In this document: positions 1-64,000 of the stretch, in pieces
How the letters are laid out: every line of letters begins with the position of its first letter
Numbering within the stretch: the first letter of the stretch is position 1
NCBI GenBank assembly: GCA_965178125.1
Contig: OZ237744.1
Coordinates: forward strand, 1,178,001-1,242,000
From: Bilabrum cf. latius
Taxonomy: Eukaryota
Reading direction: 5' to 3'
Length of the DNA: 64,000 nt
Notes under the pieces: model-generated
What the model was told of the DNA's origin: nothing
Seen by the model: the letters and a program-made list of their open reading frames with translations, nothing else
Databases searched by the model: none
Made by a program: the position numbers and the translations under genes

Positions 1-1106
1 TCGCCCTCTCCGCCCCTCTTGCCCGCCCCTGCCCCCAGCACCCGCTCCCGCACGGACCCCAGGAGCATGGCGCCCACCTCCCGCACCGCCGTGTCGTTGC
101 TACCCCCGATGCCCGCGCTGATGCTGTCCATCGCCGGGTCGAACCGGCTGTTCATCACGAACAGCGGAACATCCACGCGCGGCGCCGAGTCCTCGGGCAG
201 GACGCACACCACGCTCGGGTCCTTGCCCCCCTGCAGCGCCTCTTCGACGCAGTTCTGGTTGAGCGCGGCCGTGTTGTTCATGGCCCGGCTGATCCACGTG
301 AGGGCGGCGGGCCAGGCGGGCTTGAGAGGGGTGGAGAGGAAGTACCCAGAGTCGGGGGCGGCGCGGACCGTGGCCTGCGGGATGCGGGACTGCAGGTAGT
401 CCGCGTGGTAGTACGTGGCCAGGCCGCCGGCCGAGGCGCCCCCCACGATGGCGTGTGAGGCTTCGCCTAGGTTGAAGCGGGCGTGCAGATCGTCCAGCAC
501 CGACTGAAGGATGCGAAAGCCGCGGTAGTACATGGTCCTGGGCTTGCCGTCGTACACCACTTCCACAACCGTCTCGTTGTTACCGGAAAAAGACCCACCG
601 TCGCAGTATTCCAAAAAAACCTTGTTCCAATCGTGCGTGAGAGGGTCAACACTCGGGTCGTTGTTCATGAGGCCCCCGCACCAGCGCGAGCCCAAGCAGG
701 ACGGTATGTACTGGTAGTTCATCGTGGCATTGTAGGCCGACAGGTTACCCGGCATCATGTTTCCCGATTCGCGCAAGAAGCACGCCGGATCTGAACTTCC
801 CAAATAGCACTTCTCGCTAAACGCTCGCTTGGCGCACGAGCTCTCCGATTCGCACCAACCACCACCCTCAAAATGAAACGACCACTTTGTGGCATTCTTC
901 GAATGCGGCTCCGCCAGGTTGATCCAGTATCGCCCTGGCGTACCATCCAAGCAGCGAGCTCCATTGGATTCGACGTACTTCGAAAGCAACTGCGCATGGA
1001 ACAGGTTTGGCTCAGCAGCCGCATGCACAGCTGCTACGATAGGAAAGAGCAGTGCGCACGGAATGGTACTGACCATCATAGTCGTTAATGTTTCGATAGC
1101 TATCAT
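1..1106 (-). CDS. Pectin acetylesterase/Notum-family alpha/beta hydrolase, tandem copy 1 (3' end runs off the window)
   Basis: Near-identical to 1754-2859 at an offset of 1753 with no indels. Motifs ARCLDGT, FEGGGWC, YCDG and GASAGG. ATG at 1106, alternative MM at 1079/1076. Confidence 0.85.
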   Translation of the reverse strand, partial: MIAIETLTTMMVSTIPCALLFPIVAAVHAAAEPNLFHAQLLSKYVESNGARCLDGTPGRYWINLAEPHSKNATKWSFHFEGGGWCESESSCAKRAFSEKCYLGSSDPACFLRESGNMMPGNLSAYNATMNYQYIPSCLGSRWCGGLMNNDPSVDPLTHDWNKVFLEYCDGGSFSGNNETVVEVVYDGKPRTMYYRGFRILQSVLDDLHARFNLGEASHAIVGGASAGGLATYYHADYLQSRIPQATVRAAPDSGYFLSTPLKPAWPAALTWISRAMNNTAALNQNCVEEALQGGKDPSVVCVLPEDSAPRVDVPLFVMNSRFDPAMDSISAGIGGSNDTAVREVGAMLLGSVRERVLGAGAGKRGGEG

Positions 1107-1473
1107 GATGCTAATTCGTCAAGTTCGAAGGCAACACGGTGAGAAGATACTGTGCGGTGATGAAGCTGGTCGCCGATCATCATCGTCGCAACAAATTGGG
1201 TCCACCTCGCGGGGTCCTGCACAGAGTACCGGTGTCAATTTTTGAGTGTTTGATGACTTCGAGTAATACACATAGTGTAAATTATTATCACTACATGGTC
1301 AAATTTTGAAATAAATGCATAAGACGTGAAATATCCGGGCCCAAAGAGAACTGCTTTCGCCTCGACCAGCCTGCACCACCCCACGTAGCTCTATTGTCTG
1401 CTCTTTAGAAAAACCTACTAGCCTGCAACCGCCTGGGTATCTTTTTTGATACTACGGCCGTGACCCCGCCCCC

Positions 1474-2856
1474 TCACTGGCCCCCGCTGCAGCAGTCCTC
1501 GCACGGGTAGTCCGCCCCCTGCAGCCACAGCCGCGACCCGGGCACGAGGCCCCCGCCCCCCGCAGGCGCACCTGCATCCAGCCACCGCCACCACCGATCC
1601 GCAGCCACCGCCCCCGTGGATCCCTCAATCGTCACATTGAAGTCGTCAAACTTGCCCCCAGGCCCCAGCACCTGCCCCTGCCCCCACTGCCCGCAATGCT
1701 CGTGGCACGCTGTGATGAACGCCACGTTGCGGCTGACGTCGTGACCCTGCCACTCGCCCTCTCCGCCCCTCTTGCCCGCCCCTGCCCCCAGCACCCGCTC
1801 CCGCACGGACCCCAGGAGCATGGCGCCCACCTCCCGCACTGCCGTGTCGTTGCTACCCCCGATGCCCGCGCTGATGCTGTCCATCGCCGGGTCGAACCGG
1901 CTGTTCATCACGAACAGCGGAACATCCACGCGCGGTGCCGAGTCCTCGGGCAGGACGCACACCACGCTCGGGTCCTTGCCCCCCTGCAGCGCCTCTTCGA
2001 CGCAGTTCTGGTTGAGCGCGGCCGTGTTGTTCATGGCCCGGCTGATCCACGTGAGGGCGGCGGGCCAGGCGGGCTTGAGAGGGGTGGAGAGGAAGTACCC
2101 AGAGTCGGGGGCGGCGCGGACCGTGGCCTGCGGGATGCGGGACTGCAGGTAGTCCGCGTGGTAGTACGTGGCCAGGCCGCCGGCCGAATCACCGCTCACG
2201 ATGGCGTGCGAGGCTTCGCCTAGGTTGAAGCGGGCGTGCAGATCGTCCAGCACCGACTGCAGGATGCGAAAGCCGCGGTAGTACATGGTCCTGGGCTTGC
2301 CGTCGTACACCACTTCCACAACTGTCTCGTTGTTGCCGGAAAAAGACCCACCGTCGCAGTACTGCATCCAAACCTTGTTCCAATCGTGCGTGAGAGGGTC
2401 GACACTCGGGTCGTTGTTCATGAGGCCCCCGCACCAGCGCGAGCCCAAGCAGGACGGTATGTACTGGTAGTTCATCGTGGCATTGTAGGCCGACAGGTTA
2501 CCCGGCATCATGTTTCCCGATTCGCGCAAGAAGCACGCCGGATCTGAACTTCCCAAATAGCACTTCTCGCTAAACGCTCGCTTGGCGCACGAGCTCTCCG
2601 ATTCGCACCAACCACCACCCTCAAAATGAAACGACCACTTTGTGGCATTCTTCGACTGCGGCTCCGCCAGGTTGATCCAGTATCGCCCTGGCGTACCATC
2701 CAAGCAGCGAGCTCCATTGGTTTCGACGTACTTCGAAAGCAATTGCGCATGGAACAGGTTTGGCTCAGCAGCCGCGTGCACAGCTGCTACGATAGGAAAG
2801 AGCAGTCCACACGGAATGGTACTGAGCATCATAGTCGTTAATGTTCCAATAGCCAT
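1474..2856 (-). CDS. Pectin acetylesterase/Notum-family hydrolase, tandem copy 2, secreted
   Basis: Signal-peptide-like N-terminus, CLDGTPG, FEGGGWC, WNKVWMQYCDG, nucleophile elbow GDSAGG and ACHEHC. Ends at TGA 1474-1476. Confidence 0.9.
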   Translation of the reverse strand: MAIGTLTTMMLSTIPCGLLFPIVAAVHAAAEPNLFHAQLLSKYVETNGARCLDGTPGRYWINLAEPQSKNATKWSFHFEGGGWCESESSCAKRAFSEKCYLGSSDPACFLRESGNMMPGNLSAYNATMNYQYIPSCLGSRWCGGLMNNDPSVDPLTHDWNKVWMQYCDGGSFSGNNETVVEVVYDGKPRTMYYRGFRILQSVLDDLHARFNLGEASHAIVSGDSAGGLATYYHADYLQSRIPQATVRAAPDSGYFLSTPLKPAWPAALTWISRAMNNTAALNQNCVEEALQGGKDPSVVCVLPEDSAPRVDVPLFVMNSRFDPAMDSISAGIGGSNDTAVREVGAMLLGSVRERVLGAGAGKRGGEGEWQGHDVSRNVAFITACHEHCGQWGQGQVLGPGGKFDDFNVTIEGSTGAVAADRWWRWLDAGAPAGGGGLVPGSRLWLQGADYPCEDCCSGGQ

Positions 2857-2969
2857 CGCATTCGGCCATTGTTGCGAGCTGATTTGCACCGCCGTGAGGC
2901 AAGAACATACGAACAGCCAGTGAACTACAGTGTTTGGGACATCGAGCTGGAAAAGTTGCACTTCCCATT

Positions 2970-6986: not shown

Positions 6987-9900
6987 TCATCGCTCCCTCT
7001 ACAGACGCCTTTTCAGCGCTGCTTTCCGTATATCGTCTTTTCCGATTACGTCGTCCCCCTGCAGCACGTTTGTTTGGCTAGCTCGAGCCGTACCGATCTG
7101 GATGCGGTCCAAACCAATGGCCGGCGCCAGGTGCGGCGACTTCGATTGGGAAGAGGACCCCGCCCGGTGGCTTCCCATCGCGGCCTATCCATCGGGACCG
7201 CTGCTTCCCTATTGTGGTTGCAGCCCGCGCACGGGATCTCCTGCCCGGACCTGCGGCCTTCCCTTACCAATGGCAGTGTCACTCTAACTGGCTCTGCCTG
7301 TTGGCGCCCCAACTTGAAGTGCAGCAGAAGCAGCAACAGGGGTACCGGAGCCGTGCATCTCGTTCGGCTCCAAAAACGCTTGCAGCACAGCGGGATGGAT
7401 CGGTGTCCCGCCTTTATGTCCCCCTGAGGAGGAAGCCCCAACCCCAGCCCCAGCCCCATCACCAACACCGACCCCACCACGGGAGCCCCGCACCCCGTTA
7501 CCCACACCCGCGGTGGCAGACCTGCCCGCCGCAATGCCCCCCGCTGCCCCCACCCGCGCACCTGCAACTCCTGCTCCTCTACTGACCCCCCCCTCACCGC
7601 CCTCACCGCCACCGCCATCATCTCCCCCTCCCCCACCCACCTGCCTGCGCAGCGCAGACCGCCTGGCAGGCCCCGCGCTCGCCCGCCGCCCTGCCAGCTA
7701 GATGCCCCCCTCTGCGGGCCCCCTGGCCCCAGCCCCAGCCCCAGCCCCAGCCCCAGTTCCATGGATCCTCGCAAGCTCCAGCCCCATGCTTGCAGGCCCC
7801 AGGGAGGACGAGTGCCTCCGCATCGCGCTCTCCAGCGTGGCCCTGGACGCCACAACGGACCCAGAGGCCCGCCGCTTCACCGCGATCTTGCTGTCCTCCA
7901 TCGCCTCTGCCAGCACGTGACTCCCGGCCGAGTCCATCCTCTCGATGAAGATCAGCTGCTCCCTTTGCTTGCAGTACCTCGCCAGGATACCCTGCAGCGC
8001 GCGCTTCAGATCCTCGGCGGTGTGAACGGCCCGGGCCTGCTCCTCTTGCTCCGCGGGGGAGCCCGGCCGCAGCTGGGGAACAAGGGAGGAGGGAGGCGGG
8101 GGCACGGGGATGAGCCCGTCTTGGGCCTGCTCTTGTCCGCCGGCTGCCCCCGTGCTGCCTTCCTTGTGCCCCGACTCGGCGATGGACGACGACGTCGCAG
8201 CTGCTGCCCCACCGTTTTGCTTGCCACCGCTCCAGTCGTCCACCTCCTCACCGCCCTCCTCTCCCACGCTGCCAGCCCCGTCATCGTCCTCGTCCTGGCC
8301 CTCGCACGACGTGCCAGTTCTGTACTTGTACTAGCTTCCTGCTCCCATGCCCCCGCTTGCGCGAGACATCAGGCCGGTTCTCGAGTTGACCGAATCGTGC
8401 CTCTGCGCGCTCACGCCCCCTCTACTCCGCGGGCCAGGCACCCCCTCCTCCAGCGCCATGTGAGACGGGAGTGACGAGAGCCGACGGGCCGCAGCAACTG
8501 TTCCCCTCGGGCCCAGCTCCCCCAGCCCCCCCGGATCCCCACTGTTCCCCACCTCTACCACCACGCTCTCTGCCGCGCTCGCCTGCCGCCCCAGGTCACT
8601 AACACCCGGAGGGGCCTCCCCGCTCGCGACGCTCTGTCCCTTGCCCCGGTCCTCGCCCGGAACCCCGTCCTCGCCGTCCCCGTCCCCGTCCCCGTGGATG
8701 GGCGCCTGGCTGCAGTAAAAGACCAGGTCTGCATCCCCCGAAGCGTTGTACTGGATGTGCGCCCGCTGCACGTCGAACCCCTTCTCCGTGAGCAGCGCCG
8801 CGATGTCCGCCAGCGCCCTTCGGTCCGCGTTGGGAAAGCCCACCCCGATGCGCAGGAGGGTCTCCTCATCCACCAGGACGGGCCGCTCGTCGCAGGGGCA
8901 CCGGCTGGTCATGCCCCCGCCCAGGTCCGGCACCTTCACCATGGCCTCTCCCTTGGTCCCTTGTTCTCTGAGGAGGCTGGTGAGCACCTCCTTGACCTTG
9001 CGCCGTTGGGCCGCCGGGATGGCAGCCCCCGGATCGTCCGCCCTCCGCACGAACAGCACGTCCACGTCAGTATCGCCCTCCCGCTTCTTAGCGTCTGCGG
9101 TCACGATGTCCAGCTGCAGGTCACGCAGCTTGGACAAGATGTGCACGAACAGGCGGTCCCTGTGGCCCGCAGTCAGCTGAATCTCCAGCATGGACGTGTC
9201 CTCCTGCGCGATTGGCGTGAACACCACCGTCCCGTTCGGATCGTCCAACGCCTCGAGGGCCTCGTGCCTGACCTCGTCCAGCTTCTCCTACCCGACGTCT
9301 CCCGTCCCGTCCCTCGGGGCCACCGTGAACTGGAACACGTCCAGGTCACCGTCCGTCTCGCAGTTGGCCTCCACCACCTCCAGCTCAGCCACCCTGAAGA
9401 TGTCGAGCACCTCCAGCAGCACCCCCGGCCTGTGCAGGCCCTCCACCCTCACCCCGAAGGCGCCCACGGCGTGCTTGCCGTGCCGTTCCTCCGCCGCGCT
9501 CGCCTTGGGTCCGATGGAGTGGGACCGCATCACCTCCACTGCCGCCAGCCGCTGCTGCAGCACGTACTTGAACGCCAGAGGGGAGGCCACCGTGCACAGC
9601 AAGAAGGCCCAGATCACCGCGGCGTACACCTGCTCGTTCATCAGCGAGCGAGGCCCACCGCCAGGCCCCTCGCCCTCGGAGCCTGCCACCTCCGTGTTGA
9701 GCGCCACCTCAGCCACGAGGTAGGCGAACTCCCCGCGCGCCGCCATGGCCCACCCCACCACCCACATTTCTTGCGCGCCCAGGTGAAGAGCAGAGATCAG
9801 CTTGCCGCCCAGCGCGCCCGCCACCCCCAGCACCAGCCCCTGCCACACCGCCGTTGGGCTGAACAGCACGGCCACGGGAATGCTGAAGGCCACCGAGGCC

Positions 9901-11077
9901 ATGAAGAAGAGCTTGATCAGGAGGCTGGACACCCGCTTGACCTGCCTCCGCCACACCACACCAGACCGCGGGACGCTCACGAAGCTCACACCGGCCAAAA
10001 AGGCGCCCAGGAGGTGCGTGCCCACGAGCCAGCCTATGGTGGCATATGCGATGAGCACGATCCCCATGCAGCCCAGGTGCACCATGTCCCGCATCTGCAC
10101 CTTCCTGGTCGAGTCCTCCCTGAAGTGGGAGAGGATCCAACGCATGACGGGCGGGAATGCAAACATGGCCAGCAGCACGCTGATCACCAGGAAAAGCACC
10201 GAGTAGACGAGCGGGAGCGCGATGTTGGTCGCGGATATCTCTGGCTGCGCCAGCTGCAGCAGCACCACGAGGGCGAGGAGGCTCATGACGTCGTCGATGA
10301 AGGCCGCCGTCACGATCGTCTGCCCGAAGAGCGTGTTCACGGCCTTGTCCTCCGCCAGCATCTGCATGCTGATGCCCACAGAGGTAGGGGCTAGTGCCAC
10401 GCCCACGGCCACTCCGTCGGGGAACACGTCGTATCCCATGGCCCACACGAGCAGCACGCCCAGCGCGACCGGGGCCAGCGTGCCGATGAGTGCGACCAGC
10501 ATGGCGCCCCCGCCCACCTCGAGCACTTTTGCGGGGCTCAGGTGCATGCCACTCTCCATGATCAGCAGCGAAACGCCGATCGAACCCGCGAGCGCAAACG
10601 CGCTCGGAACATGGTGCCCTTCTTCGTCGTCGTGGGCGCCGAGCGGCACGACGTCCAGCAAGTTCGGCCCTAGTATCACCCCTGCGGTAGTAGCGGCATT
10701 TCAGTTCACCGCATTCTTGCTGGTTGCTTTGGCTGTTCGGTATGATGCGCGTGGCATCATGGAGGCGGCCGAAACGATCGATTTAAGGTAGCAGGATATC
10801 TGATATGGTGCTAGCCCCGGCGATCCACACGGTGCCTCACCTGCTGCAACAAGACCGATGATAGGACTTATCCCGAATTGGCTAGCAAGCCCGGCAAGAA
10901 AGAAGCCTGCAGCCAGGAAGGCAACAACCTGCGACACGCAAGACAGTTCGCGACTGTTGGAAGGGTGATTGAGTGCCGGCTCCAATACCGACTCGATCTT
11001 GCCACGGAGCGCAGATTTGTGAGATCACCAAATACACATACACCTAGTATAAGAAGAAACTGCCCCCCCTCTGCCAT
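6987..11077 (-). CDS. CPA2-type cation/H+ antiporter with three ACT-like domains and a long low-complexity tail (about 1272 aa)
   Basis: Exons 11077-11042, 10928-10841 and 10681-6987, introns GTATGT..GCAG and GTGAGG..GCAG. Motifs GVILGP, APTSVGI, AAFIDDV, LGAFLAG and ARGEFA. In-frame TAG at 9288, 8331, 7698, 7284, 7209, 7185 and 6999. Ends at TGA 6987-6989. Confidence 0.85.
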
Positions 11078-11221: not shown

Positions 11222-12548
11222 CGGCTGCATCGCAAGGCTATCCAGCCGAGACACCGCGAGGCCAGTCTGTGGCCGAGCCTCAATCATTCTAGCAGCCATC
11301 GGCTGCAGCACGAGGCTATCCAGCCGAGACACCGCGAGGCCAGTCCGTGGCCGAGCCTCAAGCATTCTAGCAGCCATCGGCTGCATCGCAAGGCTATCCA
11401 GCCGAGACCCCGCGAGGCCAGTCTGTGGCCGAGCCTCAATCAATCTAGCAGCCATCGGCTGCATCGCGAGGCTATCCAGCCGAGACGCCGCGAGGCCAGT
11501 CTGTGGCCGAGCCTCAAGCATTCTAGCAGCCATCGGCTGCAGCACGAGGCTATCCAGCCGAGACCGCACGAGGCCAGTCTGTGGCCGAGCCTCAATCAAT
11601 CTAGCAGCCATCGGCTGCATCGCAAGGCTATCCAGCCGCGACGCCGCGAGGCCAGTCTGTGGCCGAGCCTCAATCAATCTAGCAGCCATCGGCTGCATCG
11701 CAAGGCTATCCAGCCGAGACACCGCGAGGCCAGTCTGTGGCCGAGCCTCAATCATTCTAGCAGCCATCGGCTGCATCGCAAGGCTATCCAGCCGAGACCG
11801 CACGAGGCCAGTCTGGGGACGAGCCTCAATCATTCTAGCAGCCATCGGCTGCATCGCAAGGCTATCCAGCCGAGACGCCGCGAGGCCAGTCTGTGGCCGA
11901 GCCTCAATCAATCTAGCAGCCATCGGCTGCATCGCAAGGCTATCCAGCCGAGACACCGCGAGGCCAGTCTGTGGCCGAGCCTCAATCATTCTAGCAGCCA
12001 TCGGCTGCATCGCAAGGCTATCCAGCCGAGACCGCACGAGGCCAGTCTGTGGCCGAGTCTCAATCAATCTAGCAGCCATCGGCTGCATCGCAAGGCTATC
12101 CAGCCGCGACGCCGCGAGGCCAGTCTGTGGCCGAGCCTAAATCAATCTAGCAGCCATCGGCTGCATCGCAAGGCTATCCAGCCGAGACACCGCGAGGCCA
12201 GTCTGTGGCCGAGCCTCAATCAATCTAGCAGCCATCGCAAGGCTATCCAGCCGAGGCCGCACGAGGCCAGTCTGTGGCCGAGCCTCAATCATTCTAGCAG
12301 CTATCGGCTGCAGCACAAGGCTATCCAGCCAAGACCGCACGAGGCCAGTCTGTGGCCGAGCCTCAATCATTCTAGCAGCTATCGGCTGCAGCACGAGGCT
12401 ATCCAGCCGAGACGCCGCGAGGCCAGTCCGTGGCCGAGCCTAGATCAATCGAGCAGCCATCGGCTGCATGACAAGGCCATCCAGCCGAGACCGCACGAGG
12501 CCAGTCTGGGGACGAGTCACAATCATGCTAGCAGCCATCGGCTGCATC
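11222..12548. repeat. 78-bp tandem satellite, about 17 copies
   Basis: Unit ggctgcatcgcaaggctatccagccgagacaccgcgaggccagtctgtggccgagcctcaatcattctagcagccatc with recurrent variants. One copy near 12230 has a 9-bp deletion. Confidence 0.97.
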
Positions 12549-12580
12549 CCGAGGCCCCCGTGATCTGATCACAAACATGA

Positions 12581-13296
12581 GCGGGGCAGCGCTCTGCTGG
12601 TTGTGGCCGCCCACGGCAGGCCACTCCCACATGGGAGTCCGAAGACTACCAAGGGGCTTCAATGCCATCGGCACCGGAAAACATTTGTCGCAAACGACAT
12701 TGTCTGCGTTATCCTAACACAGACAGCAGCGGGACAGCGCCCTGCTGGTTGTGGCCGCCCACGGCAGGCCACTCCCACATGGGAGTCCGAAGACTACCAA
12801 GGGGCTTCAATGCCATCGGCACCGGAAAACATTTGTCGCAAACGACATTGTCTGCGTTATCCTAACACAGACAGCAGCGGGGCAGCGCCCTGCTGGTTGT
12901 GGCCGCCCACGGCAGGCCACTCCCACATGGGAGTCCGAAGACTACCAAGGGGCTTCAATGCCATCGGCACCGGAAAACATTTGTCGCAAACGACATTGTC
13001 TGCGTTATCCTAACACAGACAGCAGCGGGACAGCGCCCTGCTGGTTGTGGCCGCCCACGGCAGGCCACTCCCACATGGGAGTCCGAAGACTACCAAGGGG
13101 CTTCAATGCCATCGGCACCGGAAAACATTTGTCGCAAACGACATTGTCTGCGTTATCCTAACACAGACAGCAGCGGGGCAGCGCCCTGCTGGTTGTGGCC
13201 GCCCACGGCAGGCCACTCCCACATGGGAGTCCGAAGACTACCAAGGGGCTTCAATGCCATCGGCACCGGAAAATATTTGTCGCAAACGACATTGTC
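12581..13296. repeat. 148-bp tandem satellite, about 4.8 copies
   Basis: Period 148 (ORF starts at 12603, 12751, 12899, 13047). Internal hairpins actccca-ca-tgggagt and tgtcg-caaa-cgaca. Confidence 0.97.
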
Positions 13297-21847: not shown

Positions 21848-21887
<40 letters not shown>

Positions 21888-48069: not shown

Positions 48070-48152
<83 letters not shown>

Positions 48153-48719: not shown

Positions 48720-48895
48720 CCCGGTCCGAGGGGCGTTTTCGTCGGCTCAAGAATGGCCAAGCAAGTCTCGATTTGGTTCCGCTCCGCGCAGCATCTGCAA
48801 TGCGCGGCGCCGACTATCGCACTCATCATTCAATGCCCGAAAGCCACGCAAAACGCAACCATTCTAGGTTACGCAACATATCAAAGTTAATTGCA

Positions 48896-50158
48896 ATGCT
48901 TGGTAGAGTTGCAAGGACATGCGCGGGCTCACGATCATGGTCCATTGGATTGAAGCGCTTGACCAGCAATGGGATCCGAAGTATGTCATCTACGTCAGGC
49001 ATTGATATTATCAGCCCTCTGATCGGCTTGAACGAAGACTAGCGAGCTTACCACGAGATGGCTGAGCAGTTTGCAAAGGCTGAGTTTGCGCCTAGAGCCG
49101 CGGAGTGGGACGAGAAGCAAATTTTCCCGGAGGATCAGCTGAAGCAGGCTGCGTCCCTGGGGTTTGGCGGAATGTTCGTCGACCCAGAGTTTGGCGGCTC
49201 GGGACTGAGCCGCATGGATGGAACGATTATCTTCGAAGCCCTTTCCGCTGGCTGTACGTCAACTGCCGCGTACATTACAATCCACAACATGTGCGCGTGG
49301 ATGATCGACTCGTTCGGTAGCACCTATTTGCGAGAGAAGTACCTGCCCGAGCTGTGCTCGATGGACAAGTTCGCCTCGTATTGCCTCACAGAGTCGGGGG
49401 CCGGCTCTGATGCGGCTGGCTTGAGCACGCGGGCGGTGCGTGACGGAGACGAGTACGTGCTGAACGGCTCGAAGATGTTCATCAGCGGCGGCGGGCGGTC
49501 CGACGTGTACGTGGTGATGGCTCGCACTGGCGGGGAAGGGCCCAAGGGCATCTCGACCTTCGTGGTGGACAAGGGGACCCCCGGCCTGTCCTTCGGCAAG
49601 AACGAGACCAAGCTGGGCTGGAACTCGCAGCCCACGGCAGCCGTCATACTGGAGGACGTGCGTGTCCCCGCGAGCCACCTGGTGGGCGAGGAGGGGCAGG
49701 GATTCACCTTCGCCATGAAGGGGCTGGACGGGGGCCGCGTCAGCATAGGGACGTGCTCCATTGGGGCGGCCTACCGCTGCCTGCAGGAGGCGAGGACCTA
49801 CGTAAAGGACAGGGAACAGTTCGGCAAGCCCCTGGCCGCCAACCAGTCCGTCCAGTTCAAGCTAGCCGACATGGCCACCTCGCTGCAGCAGGCCAGGCTC
49901 ATGGTCAGACAGGCCGCGCAGATGCTGGACGCAAAGGACCCAAACGCGCGGGCCATGTGCGCGATGGCCAAGCGCACGGCCACGGACCAGGGGTTCGATA
50001 TCTGCAACGAGGCGCTGCAGCTGCACGGAGGGTACGGCTACCTGCGGGACTACCCGGTGGAGCGGTTCGTGCGGGACTGCCGCGTGCACCAGATCCTCGA
50101 AGGGACCAACGAGGTGATGCGGGTCATCCTCGGGAGGCAGGTGCTGGCGCACGACTGA
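48896..50158 (+). CDS. ACAD8: Isobutyryl-CoA dehydrogenase (acyl-CoA dehydrogenase family), mitochondrial, 420 aa
   Basis: Presequence MLGRVAR.., GLNED*RAY (TAG 49040-49042), [30 protein letters not shown] and [14 protein letters not shown]. Confidence 0.93.
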
Positions 50159-50406
50159 TGAGTTGGTTGGTGGCGGTCGGTGTGCGCTCGCTCCCGGTGC
50201 ACCAAGAGGGGCGGAGCGATTCGCCCCCACTGTGTTTGTGATGTCGGTGGTGGTGCACGGGTCTTGAAAAATGTGAATGCCGGCGGGTACTGTCGTCTTG
50301 GTACCTGCTTATGTACAAATCCACTTTGCACAAGCACAAGCACAGTCACACACGCCTCGATGGGCACCAGCAACGAGCCAGCCCCGAGGCCTGGGTCCCT
50401 GGGTCC

Positions 50407-51336
50407 TCAGTAGTCGAAGTCGCCTGTGGGCGCGGCCACCCCCGCAGGCGGCACGATGGCGTCCCTCACTTCCTTGCTGATCGCCACATCCACAGCGAGG
50501 GCGCCGTCTCGGTTCCGCAGCTCGGTGCTGGCGCCGCGCGACACCAGGCGAGCGCAGAACCCGGCGAAGCCGCATCTGGCCGCGATGTGCAGCGCGGTGT
50601 CGCCCATCTTGTCCTGGTGATCCAGGCTGGCCCCGCGCGTGACGAGCATCTTGAGCGCGCCCGAGTGCCCGTTGGCAGCGGCCATCATGACGGCGGTCGT
50701 GCCCATCTCCGTCTGAGCGTCCATGTCCAGGTCGAGCTCCTCGGCGATGAGCACCTTCACCGCGTTGATGTTTCCAGCTTTGCAGCAGAGGTGCAGCGGG
50801 GTGATACCGCGCGCATCTGTAGCGCTAGCGTCTGCCCCTGCCTCCACCAGAAGCTGAAGTTCAGCTTCGCGGCCGTACGCTGATGCAAAGTGCAGCGGCG
50901 TCCACCCGCCGTCCGCGCGGCTGTCGTAGTCTGCCTGTCGGACGCTCAGGAGATCCCTTACAACATCGCTGTACCCAGACCGACAAGAATGGGCCAACGC
51001 AGTCATTCCAGACCCGTCTTTTGCATCCACACCGACACCAACTTTCATTGCGAGCTTTGGAACGCCACTGCCGTCGTCTCCAGCTCCTGAGGCTGGCCCG
51101 GGGTCTCCCTTGCTCTCGCCATCTTCATCTTTTCGTGTGACGCGAATCTTTCCGTCAATTAAATCTCCTAGCCGCTTCGCATCACCAAGCCTACCGAGCT
51201 CTGAAGGCGAGTACGATGATCCAGGTTCATCAATGGGTACAGACACCCCAGAGTCTTGGCCCTTGCCTCTGGCAGACCGCTTCGTGGTTCTACCGCTTTT
51301 CCTTCCAGATCGACGCCCACTAGTCGTGGATGCCAT
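50407..51336 (-). CDS. Ankyrin-repeat protein (309 aa)
   Basis: GMTALAH, GWTPLHFA, GITPLHLC, GTTAVMMA and GDTALHIA repeats. TGA stop. Confidence 0.9.
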   Translation of the reverse strand: MASTTSGRRSGRKSGRTTKRSARGKGQDSGVSVPIDEPGSSYSPSELGRLGDAKRLGDLIDGKIRVTRKDEDGESKGDPGPASGAGDDGSGVPKLAMKVGVGVDAKDGSGMTALAHSCRSGYSDVVRDLLSVRQADYDSRADGGWTPLHFASAYGREAELQLLVEAGADASATDARGITPLHLCCKAGNINAVKVLIAEELDLDMDAQTEMGTTAVMMAAANGHSGALKMLVTRGASLDHQDKMGDTALHIAARCGFAGFCARLVSRGASTELRNRDGALAVDVAISKEVRDAIVPPAGVAAPTGDFDY

Positions 51337-51478
51337 TGCTGTTTTGTTGAATGGGTGCTATTGGTGTGCGACGCTGGTTCCGTTCGCCGATCGCCAAACG
51401 GCAACCCTTGAGTAGACCTGGTCGCAAATCGGTTCACCGCAGCAAACCCACTAGCAGTATCTTCGTTTCGGATGAAAA

Positions 51479-54400
51479 TCAATCCCAAGAGGACTACGAG
51501 GTTGGTGAAGTCCCCCCATCGGCCCCCAGCATCTGCCTCCATCCAGGCGCGCGCTAAGCGAGCATCTCACTCAGGGCGTGCTCCTCCTCGGGGCTCAGGT
51601 CGCCTAGCTTGGCCGCCGCTGCCTGCAAGCCACGCACAGTCTCCTGGTCCCCGCTTGACGCCGCTACCCGCGCGACCGCATCCATCAGCCCTCCCTCGGG
51701 CCTGCCAGCAAGCAGTCCCAGCCCCTGGCTCAAGTCCCTGGGCTGGGCCCCCCTGTCGACTTCGCATGCCCCGCCCTCCCCTTCCTTCAGGCTCTCCGCA
51801 GATGCATCCTGCCCTGCCCCACCCTCCCCTTCCTTCAGGCTCTCCGCAGATGCATCCTGCCCTGCCCCGCCCTCCCCTTCCTTCAGGCTCTCCGCAGATG
51901 CATCCTGCCCTGCCCCGCCCTCCCCTTCCTTCAGGCTCTCCGCAGATGCATCCTGCCCTGCCCCGCCCTCCCCTTCCTTCAGGCTCTCCGCAGATGCATC
52001 CTGCCCTGCCCCGCCCTCCCCTTCCTTCAGGCTCTCCGCAGATGCATCCTGCCCTGCCCCGCGCTGTCCTGCCGCCCCGTACCCATACCCACCCACAGCT
52101 GCAGCCCCTCGATCTGCAGCATTCCAGACACACTCGCCGCCAGACCAGGCCGACAGGGCCACGCTGAGCTCTTTCTGAAGCGCCGCCCGCATCCTGCGGC
52201 GCGGACTCGCCTCCTCCTCCCCGGCACTGGCAGGCATGCCCAGCTTGTCCGCATTCGATCCTGCCCCGACAGAAACAGGTGTCTTCAGGGGGGCATCGCA
52301 ACTCTAAGATGTCCCATCGGACCGCCTTGGGGACTCTGGGGCAGGCTTGACACTGCCATCAGCTGCCGTTCTAGTGCCTAGTTGCTCACCAGCCAGCCTC
52401 GCCTGCTCCCGCTTGCTCTCCTCTAGCTCACCAGCCAGCCTCGCCTGCTCCCGCTTGCTCTCCTCTAGCTCACCAGCCAGCCTCGCCTGCTCCCGCTTGC
52501 CGCCCTCTGGTGCGATGCTCAGGTCATTTTGCAGCCTCTTAACCTCGGACTCCAGCCCCTTCACCTAAGATCCTAGCCTCTCGCACTCGGCTCGTAACAC
52601 GCCCAGCTCGGCCTCGGCTTTCTCGGCAGCCTAGCCAGCCATCGCGGCTTCCTCCCTCGCCTGCTTCACCTCCTCTTCTCTCTTTGATTCCTCATCTTGC
52701 GCGATCTGTTCGGTCTGTGCAGCGGCACTCTTTGCCTCGCACAGTCCCTGCGCATCGTGTGCTGCTTCATGCAGGCAGTTTCGCGCCTTCTCTATCGCAG
52801 CTAGGACTCCGGCGCTCCCCAACGACTCCCCATCATCCCCAGAATCGAGCGCAAGGGTGCCAAATGCATGCGGCGGCTGGCTCTCGCCACCTTCCTTTCC
52901 ATCTTCCAACGCCTGTCCACTGCTCGTGGCTGCCCGCGCGCGCTCCCAAGCAGCCGAGGACTCCAGCAGCGATTTGCAAGCCTTCCCCAGCTCCCGCTGC
53001 TCCCTGTCTCGACCCGCCCGCAGTCCGACTGTCTCCTCCTGTAGGGTCCGGAGATCCTCGCGCAACACCTCGGCCTCCTCCCGCGCGCGAGTCGCCCTGT
53101 CCTCAGAGGCCCCGGCCATCTCGCGGGACTCTCGCTCCAACGCGGACACCCTCTCCTACAGGGCCGCGCGACCGCGCTCCGCAGCCTCTGCAGTGCGATG
53201 CACCCTATCCAGGTCCTCCTGTAAGCCTCCGGCACGCTGCCTGGCCTCGGCCAGCTGTCCCTGGAGCACGCCCTGCTCTCGCCCGGCCGCCTCCAGCTGC
53301 CTCCGCAGACGCCCCGACTCGTCCTCCCTCTCCGCCGCCCGCCGCCCCTCCTCCTGCTGCTGTGCCTGCCACCTCCTCTCGCTCGCCCGCAGCGCCTCCT
53401 CCCGATCTGTGAACTCCTTCTCCCTGCGCACCACCTCTTGTTCCCTGGCACGGAGCCCCTCCTCCTGCTCCTGAAGATCCCCCGCCCGGCGCCTGTCCTC
53501 CGCCAGCGATGCCTCACGCTGCGCCCTGCGACGAGCCGCCTCCTCCTCCCACCGCCCAGACCGGGCCCGCAGCCGAGCGGCCTCCTCCTACACCCTCTGG
53601 CACAGGGCCCTCGCCTGCGCCTCTTGTTCCCTGGCCCTGTTCTCCGCCTCGCGCGCTCTCCCCTGCGCCTCCGCAGCCCGCGATGTGCCTGCCTGGCACC
53701 CCCTCACTGCCTCCTCCACCTGCCCCTGCAGCGCGGCAAGCGAGTCCTCCACGCCTGATAGCCGAGCGTCCGACCTCTCCGTCGCGGCTTCCAGCGCCCG
53801 TCGGGCCCTCTCCCCCGCCTGCTCGGCTTCCCCCACGGCACCGGCTGCGGCCCGACGCACCTCCTCCACCCTCTCCCCCGCCTGCTGCTCCATCGCTGCC
53901 AGATCGGACCGCGCCCGCCGCAGCGCCTCAGCGACGGCCTCCTCCCTGAGTGGTCGTAGCGCCTGCTGCACGGCCCCCTGGACGTCCTCGGGCGATGCAG
54001 CCGACTAGAGCACCTGCTGCGCCGCCGCGAGCGCCTCGGCTGCCTCTCGCCGGTCCCGGCGGAGATCCTCCAGCTCCGCGCGAGCCGCTTCGTCACGGCG
54101 ACGCTCCTCCCCTGCGTTATGTTCTGCGTCTAGTAGTCCTATGGTTCTATCCACCGCGCGCACCCTGTCTTCCAGCGCGGTGGCGAGCAGCTCGACCGAC
54201 CGCATGCGCCGGTCCAACTCGGCGGATCCAACCCTTGCAGGGGGCATACCGACGGCAATAGCGCTGCTACTGTGGTAACTCGAAGCATATTTGGCCTAAG
54301 ATTCCTGTTCGCGCATCCCCTTGTCCAGGGGTGAGGCCACCAGAGCTTGAATGTGCTGCGCAGCTCGAGAGCTGCCATGCGAGCCAGGCCTGCTCTCAAT

Positions 54401-57953: not shown

Positions 57954-59591
57954 TCAGATCTGCGACTTTGCCCCTGGCACGCGGAGCACCTCGGCGTCAA
58001 TGCGCTGGTTGTCCCGGTTGAAGAACTGCCAGTGCAGCCTTCCCGCCAAAACGTGTTTGTGCAGCTGCCACTTGTCCTCAAGGCCGTACGGGTAGCAGGG
58101 CAGGCCGAGGGCCTCGCCCATGCTCTGCCGCACGCTCTCAGCGTACCGGGCCGCGCTCTTGGTCTCCTGCTTGCCCGGGTGCACCGCGGGCATCCACTCT
58201 AAAGAGGCTGAGTGCGACAGCTGCGTGAGCACCCTGTGCATGTACGCCCAGAAGGGCACTGTCTCCCAGGAGGGCGAGTGCGTGTGCCAGTGGAACTTGA
58301 TGAGCAGCGGCTGCACCGGCACTCCCGCCCGGAAGGCGCCAGTGCGGAACCGCAACAGCCCCGTCCCATTGGTCGTTGTTCCCTCGGGGAACACAAGCAG
58401 CGGGGCCCGGTCCTTGTCGCTGCCCCCCGCGGCCCTGCCTCTCTCCAGCTTCCTGAGCCTCCTCACGATCACCTGGGTGGCGCCCCCCCCTCCCGCCGCC
58501 GACTGCTGCGAGGCGCTATGCACCAGGCTCCCGCTCCCGCTGCCGACGCTCGCCCCGCGCCTGTGGTTGCCCTTGGACAGCATCGACTGGCTGTCGCTGC
58601 GCTGAGCCGCGAACGCCTCGGTGGCCTGCTCGGGAGAGAGCTCCGCAGCAGCCTAGGCGGAGGGCGGGGGCAGCGAGGGAGGCGCTGCAGGCGCTGGCGG
58701 CAGTGCCTGGCCCTCGCCCTGGCCCTGGCCATGGCCCTCTTTCTTGTTGGTCTTGCCCGGCCCCTGCTTCCCGTGTGCGATAGTGGCAGTCGTCTTGTCT
58801 GCCTTGGGAGACAGCAGCCCGAGCCTCTCCTGACCCCCCTCCTCCTCCTGACCTTCCTCGCTCTCGTCCTCGTCCTCGTCCTTGTCCCCCCGGGTCTGTC
58901 CATCCGACGCGACTCCCCGCACAGGAGGACCACCGTCTCCGCTGCCACTGCCGCTCCCATCGCTGCTCATCCCCAGCAGTCGCGGGGTCGCCGACGGGCT
59001 CTCGAAATGCTCCGCGTCCACGGCGGCGTGCGGGAAAATGCCTCTTGTTCCCTGCAGCAGTCCCTGGCTCGCCTCGATCAGCTCCGCAAACGTCACGGCC
59101 TCCCCGCACGCGCCCCCGTCCCGCCTGTGCTCCCCGCCCGCGCCTGCCAGGGGAGGCACGGACATCGACCGAGAGCCCCCCCTCCTGCGCCGCCTCAGCC
59201 TCTTGCCGCCCTCCCCCGGCCCGCTCTCGTCCTGGCCCTCGCTCCCACGTGCCACCCCCGCGCCATAGTCCTCCCCATCCCCACTCATGTCTGACCCGCC
59301 TCTACCGCGGCTGTGGCTGCTGCCTGTGGATAGTCGCCTCCTCCCCCTCGAAGTGGAGGAGACGGACGCCGACCGGCTACTGCGCGGGGGGGGCACTGCC
59401 TGGGCCACTAGTCCGCTGCCGCTGCTTCCGCGGCCACTTCTTCCCTTTGCACCCCCCTCATTGCTCGCACGTGCACCTGCACCGCGCCCCTTCCCTGCCT
59501 CAGTGTGTCCTTGCACATCAGCGGCACCGGCCTTGGGCCCGTGCTTGCTGGGCTAACCATCTGGGCTGCTACTCTACTTGGCTCCACCCTG

Positions 59592-59676
<85 letters not shown>

Positions 59677-60924
59677 CTCTACTTCTGGCTCTAGCCGTGG
59701 CCCTCTGCTCTGGTGCTGGGGTGCAGCTTCTCTTGCTCCTTTGAGTCGTGCGGTGCCTTGAGCGCGCCTCGTCTGGGGACGAAGACGCAATCCAGGTGAG
59801 CAGCGATGGGCCCCACCACGGGGACGCGCTTCATGTCCCCTTTTGCCACGAAAGAGGGGCAGGCCTAGCTCATGGCCAGGAGCACGTCCAGGAAGGCCAT
59901 GTGATTCGCGACGATGAGCGGTGCCCGGTCCTGCGGGGATCCACACAAGGCAAGCATATACAACCTAGGATAGGCGGTGTAAGGGGCATTAAACGCGCAA
60001 ATAGCAACGAAATAATCCATTAATAAGATCAAGTGGCCACATAGCAGTGAGCGGGACGTGGACATGATGTGCACGGCGAATCGAACGAGCATGCCGGGAC
60101 CGAGCGGTGCTACGTGGCTGGCCAGTCAGCGCTCTTTTGGACGCTAAGCAACTTGCGTCGCCCGTTGATGCATCACCAATGCGCGTCGTACAATTGCACT
60201 TTGCATGCATTTGCAATGGCAACAATACAGACACAGATGTGGCCATCCAGAGCTACGCAGGCACTGGCTGTGCGCGCGATATTGCGGCGAAATGCGATCG
60301 AGCATGATCGGCCGCTGTTCTGGTTGCGCTTGACCCCTATCACGCCCGCAATCGTAAGCCCAAGCAAGCTCAATGCATTTAATGTACTCACATCTCTAGT
60401 TCCCTTAACAGATATCCAGTAGAATCCCATCACGAAGAGCGCAAACCGCGCCAGAATCATGCCAGCCCACCGCCGTATCGTGTACCCGCATCCAGGCGAA
60501 TCCGCAGTACCTCTGCAGCACCTGGTGCTGATTGCCACCAAGTAGTACAGCAAAAATACCAAAGAAACAACGATGACGCGAACGGGGAGGAGAGTCAACG
60601 ACATGATGACAACCTGCGAGCAAACACAGGCACACCCAGGCAGGTCCGTTGATTCCCCCCGTTTATATTGACACTTTAGAGTAAACATTCCACAAGTCAG
60701 TCGCATAAACATACCTTTATCATTTCTGCCGTCGTCATTCGCGGACTAGGGTGCCAGAAAAGTGAGTACCTTGGGGGCACTCTAGTTCTGGCAAATTGGA
60801 GGTACTTTGCTGCCCCCGGTGGGATTCCATCCCAGTCACGAGCCATCAACTTGGATGAAATGTGCTCCATCGGGTCGTTCGGCTCCCTCCATTTCTACGC
60901 GTGGGTCGCGCTCATCTAGCTCAT
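57954..60924 (-). CDS. Lysophospholipid acyltransferase, LPCAT/LPEAT-like (about 800 aa)
   Basis: Exons about 60924-60715, 60613-60392 and 59930-57954. [35 protein letters not shown] and [24 protein letters not shown]. About 8 TAGs. Start uncertain. Confidence 0.85.
59589..59693 (-). repeat. (AGCCAG)n microsatellite encoding (SQ)n, with TAG variants
   Basis: Minus strand reads ..GGC TAG AGC CAG AAG TAG AGC CAG AGC CAG.. Confidence 0.9.
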
Positions 60925-61156
60925 GCCAACCCTGTCAACGTGCAGCAACTCCGTGCTGTGCGGAACCAGCAGACCGCAAGTGCGCGGCGCCAGCCCTTGA
61001 TGAAACCGAAACCTAGCTGGACCCAAACCTGGTGCAGCCAGTCCATCGTTTTCTGTGTGGTATAACCTAGTTGGGATTGTTATATATCTGCGATGTGGGA
61101 CCCCACCGCTCACTAAAAGACCTGGTGGAAAAAGTTTGGCGCAGTTGCAGTAAATT

Positions 61157-64000
61157 ATGTCGCTGTCGCTTGATGATTTACTTGGCTTTCAGTTCGATAT
61201 TGATTCAGAGTCAGAGGCAGACCGCGCCAAAAAATTTCGGAAGGTAAGCTAGGAAACCTAAGTGCGCACATACCAGTCCTGTCTGCGTGTCGCGCACCAA
61301 TTCATCGCGAGATTTCAACCGCTGATGCCCGCGCTCGCAGACTGACGAGGAGCTCGCCCAGCTCACGGTGGATGCCACGCTCCCGCCGGGCGATCGAGCT
61401 GCATGTATTTTGCGCAAGGGCTAGCTTGTGCAGCAAGAAATCGTCCTGAACCAGCTGGCGTACTCGGTTGGTGCCGGCGATGTTTGGAAGTCGTCCGGGT
61501 TGCGCCCGCTGGCCCAGTCGCTGCAGGCAGTCGTGCTCTCTGACGACCTGGGTGATGAGGCAAGGCTATTAGCTACGCTGGCGCTAGCCCGCGTGGCGCA
61601 GGCCATGCCCCTGGACAACCACTCGGCGGGTGGCCGCAGCTACCGTTCTGACGCCGAGCGCGCTCTGCTCCCGGCCTGCGCGCGAGTGGTGCAGCACGCC
61701 TCTGGCCTGGACCCCTCCTCGCCCGAGAGGGAGATCCTTCTAGACGCTGCCACGGAAGCACTCGCCCAGACCGCGAGCAGGTGCTCGCTCCCTGCCGCCC
61801 GCCGGTCCGCCCTCACCCTCGCCCGGGACTGGGGCCGGAGGGACCGCACGAGGGAGGACCGGCAGAGGAGCTGCGTGCTGATCGGGGCTCTGGCCGCCTG
61901 TGCCGAGGCGGACGGGGCCTTCTGTCGCGACACGCTGCTGGCGCTGCTGCTGCCCATGTGTCAGGACACGTCAGGACACGTAAGGGAGAGGGCGGCCCAC
62001 CAGCTGCCTCTCCTGGCCCTGCGGATGGAGCCCAAGGACGTGAGGAGCAAGCTGGCGCCAGAGGTGGTGGAGCTGCTCGCAGACGAAGAGCCCGCCGTGA
62101 TCGTGGCGGCCATGCGGGCTAGCCTGGTTCTCGCCCCCATGCTGCCCCCCGGGGACAGGCGCACCCGGCTGCTGCCCGCGCTCTGCCTCCTGCTTGACGC
62201 CGCGAGGGTGCCCACCCGGGTGGTGGCCCAGCCCGCCTCCCCCGCGGCGACCAGTCTGTTCGCCTCCCCAGCCGGCGCGCGGGAGGCGAAGAGGGACCGG
62301 CTGAGGGCGAGGTCGCAGGGCATGGGCGGCGGGGCGGGGAGCGGCAGCGGCGGCGGCGGTGGGGCCGGTAAGGGGAGCAGCGGGGGCGCGGGAGGGTCCG
62401 GCGGGGGCTCGTCCAAGAGCAGCGGCGGTGGGGCGGGGGGAGATAAAGGGGGGAAAGGGGGTGGGGGGGCTCCCGTGGGTGTGACTGCCGGGGGATCCCA
62501 GATCTAGGTCCTACCTCCCGCGCTGGGCTCCCCCGAGGCCGCCGCGGTGTGGTCTGCCTCTGCCTCTGGATCGGCGACGAGTAGCTGGGGGGCCTCTGCG
62601 CCGGACCCTGCGGACTACGCTGATGTGTCTGCCGGGGAGCCAGCGCTGGATGGTGGCAAGCGTGACCTGCTGCGGAACTGCCTGGCGCTGGAGTGCCCTC
62701 GCCTGCTGCGGCTCTTTCACGCCCTGGGCGACCTGCAGGACCACGACCTGGGGGAGAGGGAGGGGGGTGATGGAGGAGATGCAGATGGAGAGGGGCCAGG
62801 GAACAAGGTGAAGCGGGCCGCGGGTCAGAGACGCAGCAGCAGCGCGCACGATTCGCTTTCGGAAGCGGCGCGTCGGGCGAGGGAAGAGGTCGGGGAGGAG
62901 GACGCGGACCAGCAGGTGGTGGGGCTGGCCATGGGCGGCTCCGCATCCCCTTCCCCGACGGCCGACATGATGATGATCGGCAGGGCTGTCGGTGCACCCT
63001 CCACGCCCCCGCCTCGACTCGCGGTGTCAACAGCGGTGGATGCAACCGTGCCAGCGTTCGCGTCACCCGCGGTACCCACCCCTGCGGGCATGATGGTGGC
63101 GCTGCTGCAGAGCCCAGAGGCCGGTGGGGCGGGGGCAGGGAGCGGCAGGCAAGTAGGAGCATCATCGCTGCCACCCTCCGCAAGCACCACTGCCCCCACA
63201 AGCGTCCCTTCCCAGTCGTCCTCCAGAGGGCCCAGCGGACTCAGCTTCAGGTCCCTGCTGGGCTTCTACATGTCTCTGACCAGGCATCCCGCCCGCAGGA
63301 TACGTGCCCTCTGCGCATGGGCGCTCCCTGCCTTCGCGGAGACCATGCGAAACAGCAGGCGGCTGGTGCCCCTCGTGCAGTCGGTGGTGCAGCGGCTGGG
63401 CTTCGACCAGGACCCCAGCGTCAGGGCAGCGGCGCTGCAGGCCATCGTGCCCGTGCTGGCGCATATCGGGGGCACTGCGGGCGCGGCCTCGCTGCAGTCT
63501 CCCCTCGCCATGGCACTGACAGACGATGCGCACGTCGTGCTCAACACGGCACTGGATTCGGTACACCTGTGGCTCCCCGCCATTGTTCCCCCGCTACCAG
63601 GGGGACCCGCGGCGCAGCTGCTGCCGGGGCACTGGCACGGGGCCCGGGAGGGCCTGCTGCACCCGCTGCTGTCTCTCCTCGGGGAACACATGCACCGCAG
63701 CAGGGTCGTGCTCAGCTGGAGGAGGCAGCTGCGCGTGCTGGTGGCGCTCAGGCACGTGGCATGCCTGCACCCCTCCCCGGACGTGCACGCGCTACTGCTG
63801 GCCCTCCTGGACAGGGGCCTCTCGGTGGCCGCCACGGCCGGGCTGCAGGCCAGGGCAGCGCACACGCTCGTGTGGATGGCCCGATTTGCCCCCTGCGGGC
63901 AGCTGCGGGCCGGCTTGGAGCAGACGATCCACCACCTGGTTGTTCTTTCGGAGGAGCCTCGGCTCAGGGCGCTGCTGGGTGAGATGGCTGGAGCCGCGTG
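61157..64000 (+). CDS. PPP4R4: HEAT-repeat protein phosphatase 4 regulatory subunit 4-like (3' end runs off the window)
   Basis: Exons 61157-61243 and 61341->64000. K|TDEELAQLTVDATL..DRAACILRKG*LVQ resembles the PPP4R4 N-terminus as I recall it. HEAT motifs LPMCQDTSGHVRE and VELLADEEPAV. TAG at 61422 and 62505. Confidence 0.8.

Follow-up and report, generated by a model that had tools for sequence, protein, structure and literature searches.

The 64-kb stretch of contig OZ237744.1 analysed here (64,000 nt, positions 1,178,001 to 1,242,000; the window, hereafter) uses UAG as a sense codon on a par with CAG and CAA. Our interpretation, to which we give a probability of about 0.9, is that UAG is read as glutamine (Gln) in the nuclear genes of a GC-rich, intron-poor, flagellated heterotrophic protist in which TGA is the usual terminator and TAA a rare one. 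The window has a G+C content of 63% and carries ordinary eukaryotic nuclear genes along its length when Pfam is searched with TAG read as sense. The first-pass annotation, made from the sequence of the window, had proposed a stop-to-Gln reassignment rather than pseudogenisation, and five lines of evidence bear this proposal out: the frame specificity of TAG, its presence in spliced RNA, homologue columns conserved as Gln, TAG codons within CAG runs, and codon exchanges with an orthologous metagenome contig. We infer a genome-wide scope from these 64 kb, a single orthologous contig from a metagenome, and two fragments of proteins from a relative. A change of UAG alone to Gln gives the codon table listed as NCBI table 15, and a change of both UAG and UAA (UAR) to Gln gives NCBI table 6.

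TAG is tolerated in frame and TAA and TGA are excluded

The analysis covered 23 open reading frames (ORFs), namely the 22 longest non-overlapping members of a set of stop-to-stop ORFs of at least 250 aa with TAG taken as sense (100 listed), and the 244-aa ORF of the ETF beta gene (ETFB). These ORFs contain 93 in-frame TAGs, which are present in 19 of the 23, and 17 of the ORFs, corresponding to 16 genes, match a credible Pfam family above the curated cut-off. The coiled-coil ORF at 26050-29700 was considered as an 18th Pfam-supported ORF because it passes the NPV_P10 cut-off, and it was discounted as a repeat artefact. At least 12 of the 93 TAGs are non-coding: six lie in the ORF with exon 1 of the phosphoglycerate kinase gene (PGK), either 5' of its ATG or in an intron, two lie 5' of the RNA contig start of the ankyrin gene (51349), two lie within a GT..AG intron of the USP ubiquitin hydrolase gene, and one each lies 5' of the start codon of the SDR gene (2,4-dienoyl-CoA-reductase-like) and of the MFS transporter gene. 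About 80 TAGs are coding. The first-pass count of about 90 TAGs in about 20 genes is close to that of the in-frame TAGs and needs correction for the non-coding ones. All six TAG sites that it had named are present in exactly the peptide contexts quoted (43222, 49040, and 61422 on the forward strand; 24891, 20091, and 41067 as CTA on the forward strand, that is, as TAG on the reverse strand).

The frame statistic was taken from 16 Pfam-supported segments of 15 genes, 4861 codons in all. Frame 0 contains 12 TAGs, which fall within the Pfam envelopes of eight genes, and neither TAA nor TGA. The +1/+2 frames of the same segments contain TAG 28/25, TAA 10/12, and TGA 107/44 (sums of 53, 22, and 151). 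The results show that TAG is tolerated in frame and that TAA and TGA are excluded. The frames are otherwise intact, as had been claimed for these genes, with no frameshifts and no TAA or TGA in the 4861 codons. The Gln codons of the segments are CAG (140), CAA (17), and TAG (12), so that TAG makes up 7% (12/169), and the TAG share over all 23 ORFs is about 12% (93/801). A filter on GC3 for choosing coding frames gave no separation of the frames.

TAG is unchanged in spliced RNA

Four sequencing runs, the DNA run X1 and the RNA-like runs X5, X6, and X7, were compared over 36001-52000. X5-X7 belong to two studies, neither of which produced the DNA run, and their RNA nature was deduced from spliced joints. 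The sampled words were matched at 99% by DNA-like runs and at 61-84% by RNA-like runs of other studies. Contigs of X5-X7 skip five GT..AG introns (37451-37641, 38000-38144, 38925-39012, 41952-42093, and 42766-42868), all of which are retained in X1, indicating that X5-X7 contain spliced RNA. Four of the five joints occur in two or three of the RNA-like runs, among them that of the intron upstream of IFT54 (37452-37640), whose joint from 37451 to 37641 is found in X5, X6, and X7 and is absent from X1. The joint of 42766-42868 occurs in X6 only.

No letter differs from the window in any run over 36001-52000. TAGs covered by the listed RNA contigs are the four of the SDR gene (X5 record 10, 39835-41179), 43222 in ETFB (X6 record 17, which is itself spliced from 42766 to 42868, and X7 record 23), 45389 in the MFS gene (X5 record 12 and X6 record 19), and 49040 in the isobutyryl-CoA dehydrogenase gene (ACAD8-like, ACAD8 hereafter; X5 record 14 and X7 record 25, spanning 48874/48875 to 50302/50278). 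Over the same bins, ETFB has a word depth of 87-646 in the RNA-like runs and of 14-22 in X1. The presence of TAG in the mRNA, which the first-pass annotation had put forward as a check, is confirmed, since the RNA contigs carry TAG and no CAG at the covered sites. The unchanged TAG in spliced RNA contigs rules out base-calling error and wholesale editing.

ETFB and ACAD8 columns and CAG runs point to Gln

TAG was read as X in the alignments to avoid bias. The TAG column of ETFB is Q in 120 of 120 homologues, and that of ACAD8 is Q in 109 of 120 (L in 4, R in 2, and E, G, N, A, and a gap in 1 each), in agreement with the conserved Gln that the first-pass annotation gave for these two sites. Over six columns together, Q scores a summed log-likelihood of -10.7 and the next best residue, K, one of -25.1, a gap of 14 natural-log units. 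As a calibration, the window proteins carry the consensus residue in 448 of 461 columns that are conserved at 90% or more. TAG also stands among Gln codons. A poly-Gln run in the 1878-codon ORF reads CAG CAG TAG CAG CAG TAG CAG (TAGs at 31682 and 31673), TAG heads an (SQ)n run in the acyltransferase, GHG[TAG]SQK[TAG]SQSQSQ, and further TAGs lie within (GQ)n repeats.

TAG is exchanged with CAG and CAA in a diverged relative

Metagenomes were scanned with the part of the SDR that lacks TAG, and 28 loci had an SDR match. One of them, L001, is a metagenome contig of 2793 nt with 59% GC that carries the SDR orthologue, in which 232 of 283 residues are identical to the window copy. A different codon is used at 138 of these 232 residues, indicating that the two copies are well separated. 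TAG is exchanged with CAG or CAA at three of five sites: the window TAG at 41067 (GIGL[x]IA) is CAG in L001, the window TAG at 40791 (CPVA[x]MSS) is CAA in L001, and the window CAG in DPL[Q]AHAG is TAG in L001, at a column in which Q is the residue of 101 of 146 representatives. In-frame TAG occurs only in L001 (3) among the 28 loci, and the other 27 have none. The ORF upstream in L001 shows no synteny with the window. A second contig, L002 (3041 nt, 75% GC), is Cafeteria-like and has no in-frame TAG in about 1000 codons of the matched frame; next to the TAG-using clade, it represents a neighbour with the standard code.

Two protein fragments from one Logan contig, P0448 and P0361, are 97% and 92% identical to the window SDR and end exactly before the window TAGs at 40791 and 40095 (SDR residues 139 and 371), indicating that the same in-frame stops persist in a diverged relative. 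The SDR core 3' of three TAGs differs from that of the relative at 3 of about 165 residues, as read by eye from the printed sequences. The TAGs could in principle be untranslated, lying in pseudogenes, arising from assembly or base-calling errors, or being edited to CAG in the mRNA. We found no point in support of this explanation, although a minority of edited transcripts would be compatible with the contigs, and we consider it extremely improbable: the DNA run and the RNA-like runs from two further studies agree letter for letter, the genes are expressed and their transcripts spliced, their frames lack frameshifts and other stops, and the SDR core downstream of three of its TAGs is nearly unchanged.

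TGA is the usual terminator and UAA looks like a retained one

Natural C-termini are recognisable in eight genes, of which seven end in TGA, one in TAA, and none in TAG, which upholds, in this small sample, the first-pass statement that no such gene ends in TAG. Homologues end within five residues of the window end in 111 of 120 cases for PGK, 120 of 120 for ETFB, and 117 of 120 for ACAD8, and at the C-termini of IFT54, RLL, OTU, and TylF the Pfam match runs to the end of the profile or close to it. The SDR gene ends ...DAS[TAG]LGPMERAKL-TGA (40065-40097, reverse strand). Its AKL end, which we take to resemble a peroxisomal targeting signal, is common to the copies of Cafeteria and L002, and because this shared end lies nine codons 3' of TAG, the TAG must be read through to expose it.

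The sole window gene ending in TAA is that of the TylF-like methyltransferase, where the match reaches profile position 264/264 at residue 619/620, so that TAA sits at the natural C-terminus. With TGA as the only stop, some supported ORFs become joined across TAAs, and these TAAs fall in the IFT54 intron confirmed by RNA, in the putative USP intron, or beyond the TylF C-terminus. Since no in-frame TAA is needed, the reassignment looks like one of UAG only, and UAA looks like a retained terminator.

Variable columns, rare TAA, and near-terminal TAGs

Several results weigh against the reading of UAG as Gln with UAA kept as a stop, beginning with the RNA contigs, which represent the majority sequence only and are compatible with low-level editing. 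Just two of the window TAG columns are strongly conserved, and the other four tested are variable. The three SDR columns read K 57/R 28/Q 12, G 35/A 32/E 18, and D 25/K 21/A 21, with Q in a minority of 12/121, 3/122, and 7/146, and the PGK column reads N 54, Q 26, and V 11 of 120, so that Q is outnumbered at these four by K, G/A, D/K/A, and N. In PDB alignments the X of the USP His box stands opposite Y (USP36), Q (USP9X), and S (USP12), and the X of IFT54 stands opposite R of Chlamydomonas IFT54; the PDB alignments of USP, IFT54, and the acyltransferase place the TAGs at variable positions and do not inform on the residue. Two of the five window/L001 pairs are TAG with TCC (Ser, at 41109) and GAA (Glu) with TAG. 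The first-pass annotation had also cited the PGK, USP His-box, and SDR sites; TAG is indeed in frame there, which shows it to be sense, but the columns are variable and do not identify the residue.

Reassignments of UAG to Leu, Ser, Glu, Lys, or Tyr are known or proposed elsewhere, and the variable columns and the two L001 pairs with Ser and Glu are what such a residue would have in its favour here. We judge it very improbable, given the near-invariant Q of the ETFB and ACAD8 columns with the likelihood gap to the next residue, the TAGs inside CAG runs, and the three exchanges with L001, one of them at a column that is mostly Q.

The case for TAA as a stop consists of one natural C-terminus and an absence. 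If TAA were used like TAG, about 1.5 in-frame TAAs would be expected in the Pfam-supported segments, because CAA is rare (17 versus 140 CAG), and the count of 0 is therefore weak evidence against a code in which UAG and UAA are both Gln and TAA is merely rare in a GC-rich genome. UAA is also Gln in most of the known UAG-to-Gln lineages treated in the cited sections of PMC11687900. Such a UAR code nevertheless appears quite unlikely. The TylF gene ends in TAA where its profile ends, the ORFs with TAA as a stop still hold every Pfam domain whole, and the TAAs that join ORFs are confined to introns (IFT54, USP) or lie past the TylF C-terminus. Over the 23 ORFs the TAG:CAG ratio predicts about 19 in-frame TAAs, and not one is needed.

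TAG falls within the last 10 codons in 4 of the 23 ORFs, versus about 1 expected from the overall TAG rate. Counted from the end, it is the 4th codon in the Na+/H+ exchanger, the last in the 1878-codon ORF (directly before TGA), the 5th in a coiled-coil ORF, and the 10th in the SDR, with starts at 6999, 30440, 51494, and 40095 (reverse strand). These TAGs may be relics of old TAG stops that turned into short C-terminal extensions, or they may reflect residual UAG termination. The latter would fit an ambiguous UAG of the Condylostoma, karyorelict, or Blastocrithidia type, read as Gln inside genes and as a terminator near some 3' ends, which we hold to be unlikely: none of the eight recognisable C-termini ends in TAG, the AKL end of the SDR lies 3' of its TAG and requires read-through there, and the 3' untranslated region of ACAD8, about 120-145 nt from the RNA contig ends, is not extremely short. 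Former TAG stops would also look near-terminal after a reassignment.

A search with ARAGORN found 0 tRNA genes in the 64-kb window, which likewise counts among these points; eRF1 is not among the window genes either. Taken against all of them, reading UAG as Gln and UAA as a terminator remains our preferred interpretation.

A probable placement of the source near Cafeteria

The best matches for ACAD8, ETFB, and PGK are 71-74% identical, and none is near-identical. The nearest named matches are those of Cafeteria for the SDR (57% over 279 residues) and ACAD8 (64%), Aplanochytrium and Mucochytrium for ETFB (72-74%), and Hondaea, oomycetes, and animals for PGK (70-74%). In the ACAD8 tree the window is sister to a clade with Cafeteria (SH-aLRT 91), and in the SDR tree the window and L001 form a pair (100) that is grouped with Cafeteria and L002 (SH-aLRT 89). 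The PGK tree places the window outside animals and oomycetes, with an unsupported pairing with Hondaea, and the ETFB tree gave no resolved placement of the window. The position of ACAD8 and the SDR beside Cafeteria in these gene trees suggests that the source is likely a heterotrophic stramenopile near bicosoecids, and the presence of IFT54 implies a flagellum.

Two other placements were considered and rejected. An aphelid (Amoeboaphelidium, UAR = Gln) was considered because runs under the labels 'algae metagenome' and 'protist metagenome' match small parts of the stretch; there is no fungus or aphelid among the named top hits of three protein searches, and two trees lead to Cafeteria. A green alga was suggested by the GC content, the Gly/Ala-rich inserts, and a best IFT54 match to Chlamydomonas, and was rejected on a PGK of the animal/oomycete type, 70-74% identical.

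For 40001-50000, 50-84% of the sampled words are found in runs (X5-X8 and others) whose labels name other organisms than the best DNA match does, which suggests that the source organism lives in, or contaminates, cultures of other organisms. Further runs match smaller shares, 5-11%. The source organism thus turns up in sequencing runs under the names of others.

Gene content and repeats of the window

The Pfam families found are those of two tandem pectinacetylesterase-family genes, a Na+/H+ exchanger, a TylF-like methyltransferase, a USP ubiquitin hydrolase, PGK, IFT54/MIP-T3, a 2,4-dienoyl-CoA-reductase-like SDR, ETF beta, an RLL-family protein, an MFS transporter, an OTU1-like protease, isobutyryl-CoA dehydrogenase, an ankyrin protein, an acyltransferase, and a HEAT-repeat protein (Table 1). 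The pectinacetylesterase-family pair is a recent tandem duplication. Many of the genes have long inserts rich in Gly, Ala, Ser, and Gln, and TAGs are commonest there.

Table 1. Positions of genes, ORFs, and tandem repeats in the window
Feature	Position	Strand	Details
Pectinacetylesterase-family pair	3-1118 and 1477-2967	-	Almost identical; Pfam PAE ~1e-51 each; no TAG in either
Na+/H+ exchanger with ACT-like domain and long tail	6987-10700	-	Pfam Na_H_Exchanger 4.2e-31
78-bp tandem repeat	11222-12555		17.2 copies, 90% matches
148-bp tandem repeat	12580-13296		4.8 copies, 98% matches; adjoins 78-bp array
TylF-like O-methyltransferase	15280-17142	+	TAA 17140-17142; Pfam TylF 5.7e-37
USP-type ubiquitin hydrolase	18170-23075	-	C-terminal exon TGA at 18170; Pfam UCH 2.4e-37
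PGK, large 3' exon	23856-24962	-	TGA at 23856; Pfam PGK 4.4e-134; 543 bits to human PGK1
51-bp tandem repeat	27469-28512		20.5 copies, 99% matches; inside 1217-codon ORF
1878-codon low-complexity ORF	30437-36073	-	16 in-frame TAGs
IFT54/MIP-T3, partial gene	36031-37626	-	TGA at 36031; Pfam MIP-T3 4.4e-33, MIP-T3_C 3.7e-27
SDR, 2,4-dienoyl-CoA reductase-like	40065-41207	-	Ends ...ERAKL-TGA; Pfam adh_short_C2 4.9e-51
ETFB, main exon	42868-43563	+	TGA at 43561; TAG 43222-43224 in LDWP[TAG]ATFAS; Pfam ETF 1.5e-41
MFS transporter	45188-46969	+	Pfam MFS_1 1.1e-19, ORF envelope 48-532; TAG 45389-45391 is residue 76, inside envelope
Isobutyryl-CoA dehydrogenase (ACAD8-like)	48896-50158	+	TGA at 50156; TAG 49040-49042 in GLNED[TAG]RAY; three Acyl-CoA_dh Pfam domains
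Acyltransferase with long low-complexity insert	57954-60092	-	Pfam Acyltransferase 7.1e-17
HEAT-repeat protein, running off the window	61326-63998	+	TAG starts 61422, 62505; HEAT 34.8 bits vs cut-off 23.5

The sense TAGs of the SDR start at 41109, 41067, 40791, and 40095 (CTA on the forward strand). The sense TAG of PGK (24891-24893) comes right after the HLGRP motif. In the USP gene the large exon runs from within the ORF 19797-23075 down to 19932, and the TAGs of the catalytic domain start at 21168, 20904, and 20091 (His box); a putative 178-nt GT..AG intron at 19754-19931 would join ...AYL|LFYERVD, with its borders and the join read from the sequence. The sense TAG of IFT54 lies at 36337-36339, in a protein that matches Chlamydomonas IFT54 at 2.2e-41. 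The acyltransferase has one TAG within its Pfam domain (start 59865) and two at the head of its (SQ)n run (59691 and 59679). No intron was seen in the ACAD8-like gene.

No Pfam family was matched by the 1878-codon ORF. The seven in-frame TAGs of the Na+/H+ exchanger all lie outside Pfam envelopes; its ACT-like domain scores 27.7 bits versus a cut-off of 27.6 and is followed by about 780 low-complexity residues. Only HEAT repeats pass in Pfam for the HEAT-repeat protein, so the label 'PPP4R4' given to it at first, together with the conserved Gln column given for it, is unconfirmed.

The unit length of the 78-bp array is divisible by three, and the array is open in several frames on both strands, gives spurious Pfam hits, and has 15 in-frame TAGs in one frame. 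The 51-bp repeat encodes a 17-residue coiled-coil unit, VEELQRELEAAKATAGQ.

Possible mechanism and significance

By analogy with other reassigned lineages, a tRNA-Gln with the anticodon CUA would decode UAG but not UAA, and this pairing would explain the uncoupling of the two codons. Likewise by analogy, eRF1 would have lost termination at UAG and would still terminate at UAA and UGA. New TAG codons would arise mainly through C-to-T transition from the abundant CAG.

This code change has probably not been described before in the lineage concerned. A full-text literature search, whose coverage is incomplete and which is no proof of absence, returned no report of nuclear stop-codon reassignment in stramenopiles. 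We put forward tentatively, at slightly less than even odds, that this is the first nuclear stop-codon reassignment in Stramenopiles, an independent origin of UAG = Gln with UAA = stop in a GC-rich clade of at least two species (those of the window and of L001) beside Cafeteria, a model flagellate with the standard code. If so, a close pair of standard and reassigned codes would let the changes in eRF1 and tRNA behind the split of UAG from UAA be pinpointed, and the reassignment would have occurred under GC pressure with TGA, not UAA, as the main terminator.

Codes that split UAG from UAA bear on why the two codons are usually coupled, and on how eRF1 loses UAG yet keeps UAA. An independent case would be a natural experiment in a GC-rich, TGA-terminating background, for which this variant is unusual, with an apparent close standard-code relative that has good genomes (Cafeteria). 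Under the standard code, gene callers break these proteins off at every TAG, as in P0448 and P0361, and the genes are consequently mis-annotated in public collections.

Comparison with known nuclear codes

Few nuclear codes split UAG from UAA; those given in the cited sections of PMC5304391 and PMC11687900 are the codes of Iotanema, a rhizarian, Scotinosphaera, Protocruzia, some phyllopharyngeans, and one oligohymenophorean. Both UAR codons are Gln in many ciliates, Ulvophyceae, Hexamita, Streblomastix, and Amoeboaphelidium protococcarum, according to the same sections (PMC5304391, PMC11687900). The window resembles these UAR codes in a stop-to-Gln change that includes UAG, and differs from them, as far as the sections describe them, in needing no in-frame TAA and in having one gene that ends in TAA.

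The same sections report UAG as Leu in the rhizarian exLh and as Ser in Scotinosphaera, both with UAA as a stop, and UAG as Leu also in a further ciliate lineage (PMC5304391, PMC11687900). The uncoupling of UAG from UAA in exLh and Scotinosphaera, as reported there, is shared by the window, whereas Leu and Ser are excluded here by the ETFB and ACAD8 columns.

Protocruzia tuzeti and two phyllopharyngean ciliate lineages are described in the cited part of PMC11687900 as reading UAG as Gln and UAA as a stop. The window has the same codon table, consistent with an independent and recurrent origin. UAA makes up 87-98% of the stops in those ciliates, on the figures of that part, whereas the genes of the window have ordinary GT..AG introns, its GC content is high, and its nearest named relatives are stramenopiles.

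The closest likeness is to Iotanema spirale (Fornicata), for which the cited part of PMC5304391 gives UAG as Gln with UAA and UGA as stops. In both, going by that part, only UAG is reassigned, to Gln, UAA is kept, and TAG supplies a minority of the Gln codons (about 8% in Iotanema, 7-12% in the window). Iotanema is, by the same account, an unrelated anaerobic metamonad with UAA as its primary terminator, whereas the window is dominated by TGA (7 of 8 C-termini) at 63% GC.

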